Shown here one piece after another: positions 58,768 through 63,417 of a DNA stretch of 64,000 bases. Position 1 is the first letter of the stretch. Each line of letters starts with the position of its first letter. A model generated the notes under the pieces. The model had not been told where the DNA came from and made no database searches. It saw only the letters and a program-made list of their open reading frames with translations. Origin of the DNA: Escherichia coli. Its GTDB lineage: Bacteria; Pseudomonadota; Gammaproteobacteria; Enterobacterales; Enterobacteriaceae. The stretch lies in NCBI RefSeq assembly GCF_048403405.1, contig NZ_CP183129.1; one strand, 5' to 3'. Made by a program: the position numbers and the translations under genes.

Positions 58768-59713
58768 ACGCCCACTGGTTATAAACACGCAGCTGGCAAT
58801 GAAAATCGGCTTAAACGAAGCCATTGTTTTGCAACAACTGCACTACTGGTTGAGAGATACCAACTCCGGTATGGAATGTGATGGTGTTCGCTGGATTTAT
58901 AACACAACGGAACAATGGCTGGAACAGTTCCCATTCTGGTCAGAGTCAACGTTAAAGCGCGCGTTTGCAAGTCTGAAAACGCTGGGGCTTTTGCGTTGTG
59001 AAAAGCTCAATAAATCAAAGCGCGATATGACCAATTTCTACACGATCAACTATGGGAGCGAGCTTTTAGATGGTGGCAAATTGAACGAATCCATCGGTTC
59101 AAAATGCGCCGCTCCATCAGGTCAAAATGACACGATGGAAGAGGTCAAAATGAAACGCTCCATTGGTTCAAAACGACCCAATGTCATCGGGTCAAAATGG
59201 CCTGATGATCTTACAGAGAATACAACAGAGATTACTACAGAGAATAAAAACACTTTTCGTCCGGAAGCTTCGCAACCGGACCCGCAGACGACTGAACAGG
59301 ATTTTTTAACCCGGAACCCCGACGCGGTTGTGTTTAGTGTGAAAAAACGCCAGTGGGGTAGCAGGGAGGATTTGGCGTGTGCGCAGTGGATTTGGGGGCG
59401 GATCGTGAACCTTTACGAACAGGCTGCCAGCGACGATGGAGAGATCATGCGACCAAAAGAGCCTAACTGGACAGCCTGGGCCAATGACGTGCGCACAATG
59501 CGGATGCTGGATGGCAGAAGCCACAGACAAATTTGCGAAATGTTTGGTCGGGTACAGCGGGATCCATTCTGGGTAAAAAACATCATGAGCCCGTCAAAAC
59601 TCCGCGAAAAATGGGACGAACTGGTCATCCGCCTGGGACGTTCACCTGTACAGCGTTGTGTTAATCATATTTCTGAACCGGATACAGAAATTCCGCCTGG
59701 TTTCAGGGGATAA
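58748..59713 (+). CDS. Replication initiator / replisome-organizer (lambda O-position) protein
   Basis: The ATG at 58748 (MSLLFAERPLVINTQLAMKIGLNEAIVLQQLHYWL) gives 321 aa. Has a winged-helix-like N-terminus and contains an iteron array in its middle, as lambda O does. Confidence 0.7.
   Translation: MSLLFAERPLVINTQLAMKIGLNEAIVLQQLHYWLRDTNSGMECDGVRWIYNTTEQWLEQFPFWSESTLKRAFASLKTLGLLRCEKLNKSKRDMTNFYTINYGSELLDGGKLNESIGSKCAAPSGQNDTMEEVKMKRSIGSKRPNVIGSKWPDDLTENTTEITTENKNTFRPEASQPDPQTTEQDFLTRNPDAVVFSVKKRQWGSREDLACAQWIWGRIVNLYEQAASDDGEIMRPKEPNWTAWANDVRTMRMLDGRSHRQICEMFGRVQRDPFWVKNIMSPSKLREKWDELVIRLGRSPVQRCVNHISEPDTEIPPGFRG
59090..59199 (+). repeat. Five direct iterons (consensus tCCATCgGtTCAAAATG) at 23-bp spacing: candidate prophage ori
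   Basis: Copies at 59090, 59113, 59136, 59159 and 59183. Each encodes an (S)IGSK-like peptide repeat. Confidence 0.75.
59211..59250 (+). repeat. A/T-rich tract with three ACAGAGA repeats at 12-bp spacing, adjacent to the iterons
   Basis: acagaga at 59213, 59225 and 59237, followed by ataaaaaca. Analogous in position to the lambda ori AT-rich unwinding region. Confidence 0.55.
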
Positions 59714-59753
59714 GTGTTGATTTCAGGTCATGAGATAATTTTAAGGGGGACTT

Positions 59754-60155
59754 GTGGCAAAAGTTTTTACACAAGAAGAGCGGGAAAAAATTAAAGGGCA
59801 GGTTGTTGAACTCGTACGCCGGAGTGGGCGTGAGACGTTACGGCAACTGGAAGTCAAGACAGGTGCGACAAGATATCTGATGAGCGTTCTCGCAAGAGAG
59901 CTGGTTGCCAGCGGCGATGTATACAACTCTGGTTACGGGTTATTCCCGTCTGAACAGGCGCGTAAGGACTGGCAAAATGCCCGTAAAAAGCTCTCAAGGG
60001 CAAAGCTGAAGAAACCATCTGCGGTTGATCCGGACCTTATCTGGTCATTACCTGACGGAGAAATACGTCGCTACGACAGGCGTCAGAACATAATCTGCCG
60101 CGAGTGCCGGAAGAGTGAAGTTATGCAGCGCATACTGGCATTTTATCAGGGATAA
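59754..60155 (+). CDS. Hypothetical phage protein (possible winged-helix; lambda P-position)
   Basis: 133 aa with a GTG start preceded by aaggggga. No recognisable helicase-loader motifs. Confidence 0.6.
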   Translation: MAKVFTQEEREKIKGQVVELVRRSGRETLRQLEVKTGATRYLMSVLARELVASGDVYNSGYGLFPSEQARKDWQNARKKLSRAKLKKPSAVDPDLIWSLPDGEIRRYDRRQNIICRECRKSEVMQRILAFYQG

Positions 60156-60636
60156 TGTTAGGTATTTTAGACGTTACTAGATTAAAAAGCATTAGTTCAG
60201 GAGTGAATTGACATTCTCATTTTTCATGGCACAGGGTAGATCTGGCGTGGTTGTCCGCTTTGTGCCAACAGCGGACGTTACTAACGAAACTGTGAGTTAA
60301 AAACGGGAGCTGGTCACCTCCATCCCGCGAAATGGAATTCAAAAATGCCCTCATGTACGGTACTTCTAGTCTGATGTGAGCATTTTCGTGGATTTTTTCG
60401 AGCCACTCCAACGAATGATTACATTCAGTTTCGGGCACTAAAACGTCATAAATCCGCAAGTTGAGGAGTAGCGATCAGCCAATTGGTTAAAAAACAGCTT
60501 TAATTCCCTTTTTCAAGCAGGCTCCTTGTCGCACGTCTGGTGCATCCAATTCATTTCAGTTACCCTGATGCCATACTGGCACGGACTAGCTCTCTTAATT
60601 GGCGCTGGTTTGTTAACCTTGTCCGCTGTCGGGTCT

Positions 60637-60664
60637 TTGTAAGTTGTAATTCCTAAACTAGCAT
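60637..60664 (+). promoter_or_regulatory. Candidate promoter for the RSH gene (TTGTAA-16-TAGCAT)
   Basis: Read by eye. aagg lies 9 nt upstream of the ATG at 60689. Confidence 0.3.
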
Positions 60665-60688
60665 AATTTTATTATAAGGCCTCTTACT

Positions 60689-61714
60689 ATGCACATTTTA
60701 TCTGTTTCAAAAAAGGAAGTTGGAAGAGCTGGGGATAGATTAGTTTCTCAGTTTGGTACAGGTGAAAAATATAAAGAGGAAGATGTACAAATTCTTCATG
60801 AGTGGAGGATGTTGCATTTATATCCTTTAAGTAAAATACAATTTTATATGGAAAGAGAGGCTATTTCCTTAAACAAAAATGCGTTACTATCCTCTAGAAT
60901 TAAGAGGATGCCTTCCATTGTTACTAAGCTTTCTAGATTTCCTGATATGAAGTTAAATAAGATGCAGGATCTTGGTGGGTGCCGGGCTATTTTAAATAAT
61001 CTGGATCAAGTGTATGATTTAGTTAATAAAATAAAATCATCTAAATTCTCACATGAACTAGTTAGAATGGATGATTACATGATAGACGTGAAAGATTCTG
61101 GTTATAGAAGCTTTCATATGGTCTATTCATTCCAAAATAAAAAATTTCCATCTTTAAATGGGTTGCGCATTGAAATGCAAATAAGAACAGCTATTCAACA
61201 TAGCTGGGCTACAGCAGTTGAAATGGTTGGTTTGTTTCGAAAGGAATCATTGAAATCTGGTTTTGGTGATGCAAGATGGCTTAGGTTTTTTGAATTGGTA
61301 TCAGAGCTTTTTTATAAACTTGAGTATGAAAAAGAACCATCTGGGAGTTATATAAAAATATCAGAAGAATTAAGTTATTTATCCGTCGAGTTGAATGTTT
61401 TCGATATATTAGCTGCTTACAATGCCGTAGTTAGCCATATTGAGGGTAGCAAAAAATATGATAAAGGACTTTGCATAATTGTTGTTGATACCATAAAGCG
61501 GAATATAAATATAAAGAGCTTCGAAAATCACAATCATGCGAAGGCGGCAGAAGCTTATGTCGAGTCTGAAAAATACTGCGCGGAAAATAAAGGCTGTGAA
61601 GTGGCTATGGTTTCTGTTAGTTCAATTAGTGAATTAAAAAATGCATATCCTGCTTACTTTTTAGATACGAAAACTTTTTTAAATTATCTCAGTAGGTATG
61701 TTTTTATAAAATAA
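60689..61714 (+). CDS. RelA/SpoT-homolog synthetase-domain protein: toxSAS / CapRel-like fused toxin-antitoxin candidate
   Basis: 341 aa. Motifs in canonical order are R70-I-K-R-M-P-S-I-V-T-K80 (RxKxxxSxxxK), D94-L-G-G-C-R99 (DxxGxR), G138-Y-R-S-F-H143 (GYRSxH) and E162-M-Q-I-R-T-A-I-Q-H-S-W-A174 (ExQxRTxxxHxWA). The C-terminal residues from about 216 to 341 have no motif I recognise. The gene is strongly AT-rich relative to its flanks and has no adjacent partner ORF. Confidence 0.85.
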   Translation: MHILSVSKKEVGRAGDRLVSQFGTGEKYKEEDVQILHEWRMLHLYPLSKIQFYMEREAISLNKNALLSSRIKRMPSIVTKLSRFPDMKLNKMQDLGGCRAILNNLDQVYDLVNKIKSSKFSHELVRMDDYMIDVKDSGYRSFHMVYSFQNKKFPSLNGLRIEMQIRTAIQHSWATAVEMVGLFRKESLKSGFGDARWLRFFELVSELFYKLEYEKEPSGSYIKISEELSYLSVELNVFDILAAYNAVVSHIEGSKKYDKGLCIIVVDTIKRNINIKSFENHNHAKAAEAYVESEKYCAENKGCEVAMVSVSSISELKNAYPAYFLDTKTFLNYLSRYVFIK

Positions 61715-62147
61715 AAAATGTTATCTGGAGTGGTCTGAATTCTACTAACTTAGTTTTTTCAGACCGCTTCTGACCACAATGGCCTGTGAGGTTCTGCTGC
61801 TAGTCAACATAAAATAACAAAGCCGGCAGGTGGTGGTTGTTGTAAAGTTATTCAATGACATTCATGGAGGCTTAAGCGAATTATTTGTCCCTGGTCGGTA
61901 TGGTGGCAACAGCTTGTTGCGAGAATTTGGCTAATTTGGACTGACTTCCGCTCCTTGCTCAAAGCGGACTAGAAGGTTAGCTTGTGTCGGACTTTGCGTA
62001 TTAAAAGAAGTGCTGGTGGTGACTAGTGGTTGAGCCCCATTTCCACAGAAAAAATCAGAGAAACTATACCCAATAGTTGTATTGAATCACTGACGAGACA
62101 GCCTCATATTCATCAGGACTGGTGTACGTCCAATACAGGAGGTTGTG

Positions 62148-62237
62148 GTGCTGGTTCTCAAATGTGCGCTGGCTATTACGGCTGTAATGGCGATTTATTG
62201 TCTTGCTATTGTTCTTATGGATCGCCTTTCTGACTGA
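62148..62237 (+). CDS. Candidate 29-aa hydrophobic peptide (type I toxin-like)
   Basis: AGGAGG at 62137-62142, a 5-nt spacer, then a GTG at 62148. The product is MLVLKCALAITAVMAIYCLAIVLMDRLSD then stop. Not in the ORF track because it is under 60 aa. Confidence 0.4.
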   Translation: MLVLKCALAITAVMAIYCLAIVLMDRLSD

Positions 62238-62277
62238 TTTCATATTGGCGAGGTAAAGGTAGTTAAGTAGAATGGCT

Positions 62278-62291
62278 GCGGGTGCTTGAGG
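62278..62291 (+). promoter_or_regulatory. hok mRNA 5-prime element (tac-like) complementary to the 3-prime fbi-like element
   Basis: gcgggtgcttgagg pairs with cctcaacgcacccgc at 62654-62668, with one bulge. Confidence 0.6.
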
Positions 62292-62334
62292 CTATCTGCC
62301 TCGGGCATGAACACCAAAGGCAGATAGAGAAAAG

Positions 62335-62400
62335 CCCCAGTTAACATTACGCGTCCTGCAAGACGCTTAACATTAATCTGAGGCCAATTTCATGCTAGAC
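62335..62400 (-). ncRNA. sokD: Putative Sok-type antisense RNA
   Basis: A minus-strand promoter-like TTGCCT (62435-62430), 17-nt spacer, TAACCT (62412-62407) would start an antisense transcript across the hok leader. The extent is a guess. Confidence 0.3.
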
Positions 62401-62448
62401 ACATGTAGGTTAGCCTCTTACGTGCCGGAAGGCAAGGAGAAGCAGGCT

Positions 62449-62604
62449 ATGAAGCAGCAAAAGGCGATGTTAATCGCCCTGATCGTCATCTGTTTAACCG
62501 TCATAGTGACGGCACTGGTAACGAGGAAAGACCTCTGCGAGGTACGAATCCGAACCGGCCAGACGGAGGTCGCTGTCTTCACAGCTTACGAACCTGAGGA
62601 GTAA
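62449..62604 (+). CDS. hokD: Hok-family type I toxin (HokD/RelF)
   Basis: The ATG at 62449 gives 51 aa, MKQQKAMLIALIVICLTVIVTALVTRKDLCEVRIRTGQTEVAVFTAYEPEE, which matches recalled HokD. The ORF track shows an in-frame upstream ATG at 62392 (70 aa). Confidence 0.9.
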   Translation: MKQQKAMLIALIVICLTVIVTALVTRKDLCEVRIRTGQTEVAVFTAYEPEE

Positions 62605-62653
62605 GAGACCCGGCGAGGGAGAAATCCCTCGCCACCTCTGATGTGGCAGGCAT

Positions 62654-62668
62654 CCTCAACGCACCCGC
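62654..62668 (+). promoter_or_regulatory. hok mRNA 3-prime fold-back (fbi-like) element
   Basis: Complementary to 62278-62291. Confidence 0.6.
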
Positions 62669-62673
62669 ACTTA

Positions 62674-62699
62674 ACCCGCTTCGGCGGGTTTTTGTTTTT
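62674..62699 (+). terminator. Rho-independent terminator of hok mRNA
   Basis: Stem acccgc, loop ttcg, stem gcgggt, followed by ttttgttttt. Confidence 0.85.
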
Positions 62700-62820
62700 A
62701 TTTTCAACGCGTTTGAAGTTCTGGACGGTGCCGGAATAGAATCAAAAATACTTAAGTAGCGCGCAGGGATAAGAGGGATGGTCCCTTAAAGGGGAGAGCT
62801 AATTATCCGGAAGAATTCTG

Positions 62821-63072
62821 ATGATGAACATCGAAGAACTGCGTAAAATTTTTTGTGAAGATGGCCTCTATGCTGTGTGCGTTGAAAATGGAAATCTTGT
62901 TAGTCATTACCGCATTATGTGTTTGCGAAAGAATGGGGCTGCGTTAATTAATTTTGTGGATGGTCGAGTGACAGACGGATTTATCTTGCGCGAAGGTGAG
63001 TTTGTCACTTCATTACAGGCACTGAAAGAGATCGGAATAAAAGCAGGCTTTTCAGCTTTTGCAGAAGAATAA
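62821..63072 (+). CDS. rem: Qin prophage protein Rem
   Basis: 83 aa starting MMNIEELRKIFCEDGLYAVCVENG. Matches recalled Rem, downstream of hokD as in K-12. Confidence 0.85.
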   Translation: MMNIEELRKIFCEDGLYAVCVENGNLVSHYRIMCLRKNGAALINFVDGRVTDGFILREGEFVTSLQALKEIGIKAGFSAFAEE

Positions 63073-63138
63073 ACTCATCTACAATCTTGCGCGGGGCTGA
63101 ACTCCCGCTGAGTAACACCGTGCCACCGGAGAAAACCG

Positions 63139-63417
63139 ATGGCACGCAACGTAAAATATTACAATTCTGATAATTCGCCCGTTCTTGCCTGCACGCACGG
63201 GCGGTATTCTCACGCATTCAAGTCTGAATGGTTCCAGCACCCTCCATGCACTGCAGAACAGGCCGAATGGCTGATTCATTCTTACCGCAGGCGCGGGTTC
63301 GAGGTTAAGAAAGCTCTCAGTCTCGACTATCGGCACTGGATAATCTCTGTCAGGCTGCCTTATTCCGAACGCCCACCACGTGCGTCCCGCACTTTCCAGC
63401 AACGGATCTGGAGGTAA
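63139..63417 (+). CDS. Hypothetical 92-aa protein, possibly translationally coupled to ydfU
   Basis: ORF ending in taa at 63415-63417, with GGAGG at 63410-63414 serving the downstream GTG. No function recognised. Confidence 0.4.
   Translation: MARNVKYYNSDNSPVLACTHGRYSHAFKSEWFQHPPCTAEQAEWLIHSYRRRGFEVKKALSLDYRHWIISVRLPYSERPPRASRTFQQRIWR

Follow-up and report, generated by a model that had tools for sequence, protein, structure and literature searches.

The closest described relative of the gene discussed here is CapRelSJ46 of Salmonella phage SJ46, whose key residues are a G-loop tyrosine (Y155) and two ATP-coordinating arginines (R79 and R116), and whose C-terminal pseudo-zinc-finger domain carries a YXXY motif (Y352, Y355) that plugs the ATP site (PMC9712102). 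For the setting of the gene, the closest comparisons are the hotspots of P2 and P4 phages, in which a short interval between two conserved phage anchor genes is filled by any of numerous defence systems, often AT-rich (Rousset et al. 2022, PMC9122126), and the Qin prophage of Escherichia coli K-12, in which integration of relBE truncated the ancestral 70-codon hokD/mokD frame (PMC6379469). We analysed a 64-kb stretch of E. coli DNA (contig NZ_CP183129.1; hereafter ‘the window’, meaning the whole 64 kb) and focused on an interval that lies between the DUF977 gene of a Qin-like prophage and its hok/sok locus, and that contains a RelA/SpoT homologue (RSH) gene. We consider it probable that this interval is an accessory-gene slot of a Qin/mEp460-type lambdoid prophage, here holding a CapRel-family fused toxin-antitoxin cassette. 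In the literature library searched, we found no description of the slot, of DUF977, of the candidate defence model PDC-S33 that matches the gene product, or of the palindrome sequence found at the slot edges.

The variable slot and its CapRel-like cargo

We compared 16 RefSeq-derived loci from a spread sample of E. coli, two isolated phages and 80 IMG/VR loci, the last chosen solely by DUF977 similarity, and counted a slot wherever hok follows DUF977. The slots are diverse, with 35 cargo types in 77 slots and 26 types among the 60 slots from IMG/VR. Their length ranges from 51 to 5812 bp and their interior G+C content (GC) is mostly 0.32–0.48; the flanks are 84–99% identical between loci. Cargo annotated in RefSeq includes AIPR, KwaB-like, SMODS plus SLATT, NgoMIV-type restriction-modification (type II), the Sll1717 P-loop ATPase, zeta toxin, FRG, DUF4209/DUF7380, SMEK with a methyltransferase, and QueH. 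Matches to PADLOC models add Tmn, Lit, NsnABC and PD-T7-1, and matches to Pfam add RES/HEPN-RES. Since the phage isolates HannyBb, Tritos, mEp460_ev081 and Evi also have this layout, the slot is a feature of functional phages as well as of decayed prophages. A previous interpretation of this DNA made from the letters alone (the sequence-only reading) had proposed an exchange hotspot for toxin- or defence-type modules. Comparative alignment bears this out, gene content being far from invariant across the slots, and supports the interval as a true exchange hotspot for toxin- and defence-type cargo.

The variable part in the window is shorter than the 60160–62270 first assigned to it. It runs from 60282 to 61944 (1.66 kb), and the sequences on both sides (60156–60281 and 61945–62279) are conserved flanks common to prophages with other cargo. 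Base composition follows the insert: its GC is 0.364, and that of the RSH coding sequence (CDS) alone is 0.326, against a window mean of 0.492 (standard deviation 0.032 for insert-length windows), in agreement with the earlier description of an AT-rich RSH gene. Along the profile, GC is 0.31–0.35 over 60600–61800 versus 0.43–0.55 on both sides, a sharp difference from the flanks. Only 0.16% of same-size windows are as AT-rich as the insert, every one of them overlapping it, and no equal-length stretch in the 64 kb has a lower GC. The AT-richness of the insert is real and far beyond chance.

The RSH gene (60689–61714, + strand) encodes 341 aa, with a predicted N-terminal toxSAS pyrophosphokinase and a predicted C-terminal autoinhibitory pseudo-zinc-finger-like domain. 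The protein matches Pfam RelA_SpoT over residues 69–175 (4e-18) and aligns to CapRelSJ46 (PDB 7ZTB/9ERV) with E = 2.6e-34, residues 6–338 of 341 pairing with residues 15–370. The small alarmone synthetases RelQ, RelP and YjbM match its N-terminal part only (residues 67–180, about 4e-10). It is also matched by the PADLOC candidate model PDC-S33 (5e-119) and by PHROG 4773 (5e-134), a family of unknown function.

Structure prediction gave the same picture. The AlphaFold (AF2) model has a predicted local distance difference test score of 89.3 and a predicted template modelling score of 0.86. Its C-terminal domain (after residue 249) consists of strands at 260–267, 272–278 and 303–310, a connecting helix at 283–299 and a C-terminal helix at 328–338. 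The best PDB matches in Foldseek are the CapRelSJ46 chains 7ZTB/9ERV, which align over the full length (~350 columns) with a template modelling score of 0.69 and 27–29% identity; small alarmone synthetases align to the N-terminal half only, where the fold matches the synthetase domains of CapRel and RelQ/RelP. On alignment to CapRelSJ46, residues Y155, R79, R116, Y352 and Y355 correspond to Y139, R70, R99, Y320 and Y323, and A319-Y320-P321-A322-Y323-F324 pairs with A351-Y352-P353-N354-Y355-F356. Across 48 aligned sequences (34–86% identity), R70, R99, G138-Y139 and P321 do not vary, and A319, Y320 and F324 reach 90% conservation or more. Its sequence and predicted fold place the protein in the CapRel family as a divergent new member, and in the model the C-terminal pseudo-zinc-finger antitoxin domain is present in the same polypeptide. 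No antitoxin-size gene appears beside the RSH gene in the ORF (open reading frame) map or in the RefSeq annotation.

The full-length alignment, the conserved key residues and a predicted fold like that of CapRelSJ46 argue for family membership and, by homology, for a mechanism. In the explanation that we propose, the slot would extend from the Ren-like DUF977 gene ending the replication module to the conserved flank leading into hok/sok, and members of this phage group would carry differing, mostly AT-rich, horizontally acquired cargo, much of it for anti-phage defence; the cargo of the window would be a single 1.7-kb cassette. In an uninfected lysogen, the C-terminal pseudo-zinc-finger-like domain would fold back on the N-terminal toxSAS domain, and the Y320-P-A-Y323 motif would block the ATP site formed by R70 and R99. 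Binding of a protein of a superinfecting phage to the C-terminal domain (the major capsid protein in the studied CapRelSJ46 case) would open the enzyme, which would then move pyrophosphate from ATP onto the 3′ CCA ends of tRNAs, stopping translation and aborting the infection. From homology to CapRelSJ46 we infer all three properties for the RSH protein, namely tRNA pyrophosphorylation, a phage-protein trigger and an abortive-infection phenotype; the match to the candidate model PDC-S33 lends them indirect support.

We count the contexts of relatives in favour of this explanation, as they include defence settings. The Pectobacterium homologue adjoins AbiEii in an integrase-bearing island, the Serratia homologue adjoins dCTP-deaminase-like genes, and a plasmid copy adjoins the pif locus (see below). 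A 65%-identical E. coli allele occupies a moron slot of another lambdoid prophage, between the Q antiterminator and holin genes and in the opposite orientation (L017–L021, 5001–6017). Enterobacter, Citrobacter and Klebsiella have proteins that match the RSH protein at 90% identity or more. Relatives at 65–85% protein identity share the CDS only, without the 5′ stretch of the cassette.

Within E. coli the cassette is rare. The region 60100–62700 recurs at 100% identity in 40 of 5,426 complete genomes (the cassette block at 99.8% or more), all in a Qin-like prophage with the gene order dicB ... helix-turn-helix (HTH) repressor, dicC, ydaT-like, O-like, DUF977, RelA/SpoT, hokD, rem, ydfU, ydfT. 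Upstream of the RSH gene the cassette has a specific non-coding stretch (60277–60688, +; GC about 0.43), about 100% conserved in these 40 genomes and the presumed site of the RSH promoter. Right after the RSH stop, a stem-loop (61719–61778, +) folds at -25.1 kcal/mol versus -10.8 +/- 2.7 for shuffles (z -5.2; 0 of 200 shuffles as stable), and is probably a 3′ terminator or stabiliser. It lacks a U-tract and is less stable on the - strand. The cassette ends in a cargo-specific, non-coding tail (61779–61945) without an Rfam match, beyond which homology with other-cargo slots resumes. This tail contains the best sigma-70-like match of the region (TTGCCA-18-AATAAT, 10/12; 61880–61909, - strand), which points leftward to the RSH 3′ end and could drive an antisense transcript.

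Palindromes at the slot edges

The breakpoints between slots cluster within about 20–30 nt on each side. Left homology to slots with other cargo stops at 60263–60285 (39 slots, 16 cargo types), and right homology starts at 61944–61976 (39 slots, 15 cargo types). These edges coincide with the two copies of a palindrome: TCCGCT-N10-AGCGGA has only two matches in the 64 kb, at 60254–60275 and 61947–61968, compared with 0.01 expected by chance. The left-type copy (60253–60276) reads GTCCGCT-TTGTGCCAAC-AGCGGAC and marks the left edge of the variable region, and the right-type copy (61946–61969) reads TTCCGCT-CCTTGCTCAA-AGCGGAC and marks the right edge. The consensus is TGTCCGCT-N10-AGCGGACA, spanning 24–26 nt with arms of 7–9 bp. 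Among slot representatives the motif was observed 22 times versus 1.5 expected, a count that includes an internal right-type/left-type pair between two cassettes in one locus (L061). Cargo-dependent variation in the left palindrome is confined to the 3′ arm, with the 5′ arm and loop constant; the right palindrome shows the reverse pattern, which places the joints inside or at the inner edge of the palindromes. Complementarity of the cassette ends (left 3′ arm versus right 5′ arm), as predicted for a circular, integron-like unit, was not significant (P = 0.21). As RNA folds the palindromes alone are modest (z -0.6 to -2.2), and an Rfam scan of 59500–63200 (E up to 1) found nothing at the palindromes or in the spacer downstream of the RSH gene, only sok.

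The cassette also occurs outside phages. On a Citrobacter freundii-complex chromosome, 60253–61943 is matched at 96% identity between an efflux gene and a TonB receptor gene, and a second Citrobacter strain (L114) carries a further cassette, giving a two-cassette array closed by the right palindrome. The match on an Enterobacter hormaechei chromosome starts at 60253 (87% identity), with another left-type palindrome before the neighbouring cassette and a degenerate right-type palindrome after the RSH gene, and a Raoultella terrigena IncFII plasmid matches 60252–61931 at 93% identity, adjoining the pif locus. In all three genera, cassette homology starts at 60252/60253 and the 5′ stretch is present at 87–96% identity. 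On Klebsiella IncN plasmids, a type ISP restriction gene adjoins a copy of the palindrome together with the initial ~35 nt of the cassette.

A wider palindrome scan covered one genome per species and specified only the loop and 3′ arm; because ~277 chance hits were expected, we counted only matches that also had the unspecified 5′ arm. Among the 87 matches listed, 54 also carried this arm. The sources of these 54 include many Enterobacterales as well as Alpha-, Beta- and other Gammaproteobacteria, and neither DUF977 nor Hok lies near any of them. At the alphaproteobacterial loci, which are from metagenome-assembled genomes, the palindrome is present in multiple copies, often paired in tandem, in the intervals separating housekeeping genes, much in the manner of repetitive extragenic palindromic (REP) sequences. 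In E. coli the palindrome is low copy (median 1, maximum 4 places per genome), with 111 places on plasmids. Palindrome loci beyond the window are L113/L114, L110, L235, L236 and L115–L194. One slot among the 5,426 genomes, in E. coli strain A20, is nearly empty (L104 1748–2025); its left and right palindromes, the latter with a mutated 5′ arm, are separated by about 225 bp that contain no long ORF.

We suggest, tentatively and with low confidence, that the palindromes may serve as handles for cassette exchange, in a system that would carry defence genes among lambdoid phages, conjugative plasmids and chromosomes. Three patterns point this way: the same cassette starts at the same palindrome base in four settings, multi-cassette arrays have palindromes between their units, and palindromes sharing the loop are spread over Alpha-, Beta- and Gammaproteobacteria. 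The agent of such an exchange may be a dedicated hairpin-recognising recombinase or transposase acting in trans, or phage Red/RecET-type short-homology recombination. A 200-aa tyrosine-recombinase-like protein, consisting of the catalytic domain only, is encoded beside the RSH cassette in Enterobacter (L110 5194–5796), and one E. coli slot holds a 95%-identical copy next to PD-T7-1 (L061 9384–9986). We rejected this recombinase as a recurrent slot component, as it is found in one slot type and the Enterobacter islet only.

Alternative explanations and flanking features

Several observations weigh against a CapRel-family defence cassette in an exchange slot. Identity to CapRelSJ46 is only 27–29%, and three CapRel interface residues differ (A77 to S, V338 to A and L339 to M, A341 to S). 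In a scan for sigma-70 promoters, no site upstream of the RSH gene reached 9/12 and sites were as numerous as in shuffled sequence; expression of the gene from the repressed prophage is presumed. Some cargo is not defence, such as a BCCT transporter with DUF2254 (L065) and the frequent QueH, and many cargo genes (about half of the cargo proteins scanned) have no PADLOC match. The RefSeq sample was picked for diversity, and only the IMG/VR subset is unbiased. On the enzyme itself, the matches of the N-terminal domain to RelQ, RelP and YjbM (about 4e-10) and to Pfam RelA_SpoT would also suit a small alarmone synthetase or an alarmone toxin, making (p)ppGpp or (p)ppApp and altering host physiology with no tRNA modification, and some toxSAS families do make alarmones. 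We think this unlikely, since the closest full-length relative in sequence and fold is CapRelSJ46, whose demonstrated substrate is tRNA, and since RelQ and RelP lack anything corresponding to the C-terminal 95 residues and the YxxY motif.

Doubt could equally be raised about the role of the gene, which might stabilise the prophage segment by addiction instead of defending against phages; it has a fused toxin-antitoxin architecture and lies near hok/sok, where K-12 relatives carry relBE. A single fused polypeptide, however, should be unable to give post-segregational killing through the differing stability of two products, close family members protect against phage in experiments (PMC9712102), and other alleles of the slot carry bona fide defence systems, so that we regard an addiction module as rather improbable. 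The variability of the interval, finally, might reflect decay of a cryptic prophage through deletions, insertion sequence (IS) insertions and leftovers rather than exchange of cargo. Several slots do contain IS elements and pseudogenes, in BL21 a plain deletion extends from within DUF977 to 62125, and K-12 Qin is heavily rearranged. Decay as the general cause is nonetheless highly improbable: the breakpoints of 15–16 independent cargo types converge on the same 20–30 nt per side, most cargo genes are intact, isolated phages share the architecture, and three non-phage contexts contain the cassette with its left end unchanged. We favour an accessory-gene slot holding a CapRel-family cassette.

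The left anchor of this slot, and the last gene before it, is a DUF977/Ren-like gene (59754–60155, +), identified by Pfam DUF977 (3.8e-29) and by its RefSeq annotation. Its product also matches phrog_142 of PHROGs, ‘Ren-like exclusion protein’ (6.5e-45), which makes the slot the ren/nin junction in lambda terms. Called the last replication-module gene in the sequence-only reading, DUF977 may itself be an exclusion- or moron-type gene rather than a replication gene. It is followed by the conserved left flank (60156–60252), through which blastn homology extends in comparisons with 16 loci and then 77 slots.

On the other side, the conserved right flank (61970–62279, +) contains a 29-aa ORF and then the hok promoter region, with a promoter-like site at 62245–62273. 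The right anchor is a complete hok/sok/mok type I toxin-antitoxin locus (62280–62700, +) comprising mokD (62392–62604), hokD (62449–62604) and a terminator (62673–62690). Rfam sok (RF01794) matches at full length over 62280–62454 (117 bits), the hokD product matches Pfam HOK_GEF (3e-23) and carries the RefSeq name hokD, and the mok frame has its 70 codons; the locus is complete here and truncated in K-12. A sub-threshold match to Rfam isrK (25.7 bits; gathering score 50) at 62613–62694 overlaps the hok 3′ end and terminator, and is probably mere terminator similarity.

The ORF map recovered every feature of the original ORF list in its place, and comparison across slots changed how the small frames are read. 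A TTG-initiated 80-aa ORF (60217–60459, -), taken for a probable gene remnant, spans the left joint, with its last 22 codons in the conserved left flank and its first 58 in cargo-specific DNA. Only residues 59–80 match other slots in tblastn searches; the cargo-specific part matches none, which leaves the remnant without support. We also rejected the ORF as a real gene, the frame crossing a recombination joint by chance. The spacer at 61715–62030, described as unexplained, indeed has no ORF of at least 60 aa (just three of 34–38 aa), but it is a composite: after the stem-loop come about 165 bp of the cassette tail, then the right palindrome and the beginning of the conserved flank. It gave no Rfam match (E up to 1), and its whole-spacer RNA fold is only mildly stable (z -1.76).

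Two overlapping ORFs on the map, at 62030–62233 (67 aa, +) and 62064–62243 (59 aa, -), had suggested a dual-frame coding patch. Neither is conserved, the frames being intact in only 3 and 8 of 26 distinct flanks, respectively, and both were rejected as genes; a third frame, of 29 aa, is intact in all 26. This hydrophobic ORF (62148–62237, +; peptide MLVLKCALAITAVMAIYCLAIVLMDRLSD) has a GTG start at 62148 and an AGGAGG Shine-Dalgarno sequence at 62137–62142, and lies immediately before the hok promoter. No other part of the flank is as conserved: 13% of the sites in the ORF vary, and the changes in it comprise 7 synonymous and 7 non-synonymous ones. The peptide has no match in Pfam or PHROGs and so is not recognisably Hok-like; the exact peptide has been deposited as ‘hypothetical’ or ‘membrane protein’, and is without RefSeq annotation here.

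The observation in the sequence-only reading is correct and its interpretation mostly correct, with some parts unsupported. Its K-12 gene order, relB-relE-hokD, is right, but its placement of relBE in the same slot has to be revised. The K-12-type block, ydfW-flxA-ydfV-relB-relE with IS remnants in its fuller versions, joins at 62435, in the hok leader/mokD and about 490 bp right of the slot edge, and K-12 homology to the window resumes only there, just upstream of the hok start (L002 matches). The window itself has no homology to the K-12 relBE segment, and neither relB nor relE is annotated in the identical RefSeq locus. In two loci (L006 and L007) the relBE block accompanies genuine slot cargo (one has an Sll1717 ATPase, the other QueH and a KwaB-like gene), and relBE therefore occupies a neighbouring insertion point and not this slot. 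Their order is slot cargo, a hok leader copy to 62449, an IS remnant, ydfW-flxA-ydfV-relBE, and hokD from 62435. The two parts of the split leader (L006 4601–4849 and 8151–9716; L007 5695–5878 and 9152–10717) overlap by 15 bp at 62435–62449, covering the hok ribosome-binding site, consistent with the relBE block having inserted into the hok/sok leader. K-12 also has no left anchor: ydfX is a stump of YdaT, and the YdaT C-terminus, the O-like gene and DUF977 have been lost.

Comparison with known systems

The slot is a compact and easily anchored place to search for defence genes in very common E. coli prophages, and the cargo proteins without a PADLOC match (about half of those scanned) are candidates for new defence systems. 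If the palindromes are indeed recombination handles, they would help to explain how single defence genes hop between phage, plasmid and chromosome without mobility genes of their own. Like integron cassettes and REP or bacterial interspersed mosaic elements (BIMEs), the units are promoter-poor, gene-sized and bounded by short hairpin-forming repeats, with arrays in L061, L110 and L114. Unlike the attC sites of integrons (60–140 nt), the palindromes span 24–26 nt and have no GTTRRRY core; the ORF map shows no integron integrase in the slot of the window, and neither an integron integrase nor a REP-associated tyrosine transposase (RAYT) is seen nearby. REP and BIME sequences are high copy in a genome; the slot palindrome is low copy in E. 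coli and multicopy in the alphaproteobacterial loci.

With K-12 Qin, the window shares the prophage lineage, the right-hand genes hokD, rem and ydfU, and a toxin-type module upstream of hokD (relBEF in K-12). The modules differ in their joints: K-12 relBE is joined at 62435 and not between palindromes, and it removes sok/mok.

The RSH protein resembles CapRelSJ46 in full-length domain order, in the G-loop tyrosine, in both ATP-coordinating arginines, in the three-strand/helix C-terminal domain and in the YxxY motif, and both are encoded by a single gene in a variable region of a temperate phage. It differs in being 32 residues shorter, with no counterpart of the CapRelSJ46 83–107 insertion, and in its substituted interface residues; the gene lies in a lambdoid slot, and CapRelSJ46 in a P1-like phage. 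Because the C-terminal sensor region has diverged, the trigger probably differs from that of CapRelSJ46, the domain probably recognising a different phage protein, and a divergent prophage-borne relative of this kind is useful for mapping the diversification of one-protein immune sensors. The slot, in turn, shares with the P2 and P4 hotspots its conserved anchors, its alternative and often AT-rich cargo, and its typically single-system occupancy, and it differs from them in lying in a lambdoid phage, between a Ren-like gene and hok/sok, with edges on a 24-nt palindrome. The gene is a new member of the known CapRel family, and the slot behaves like the P2 and P4 hotspots but in a different phage family.

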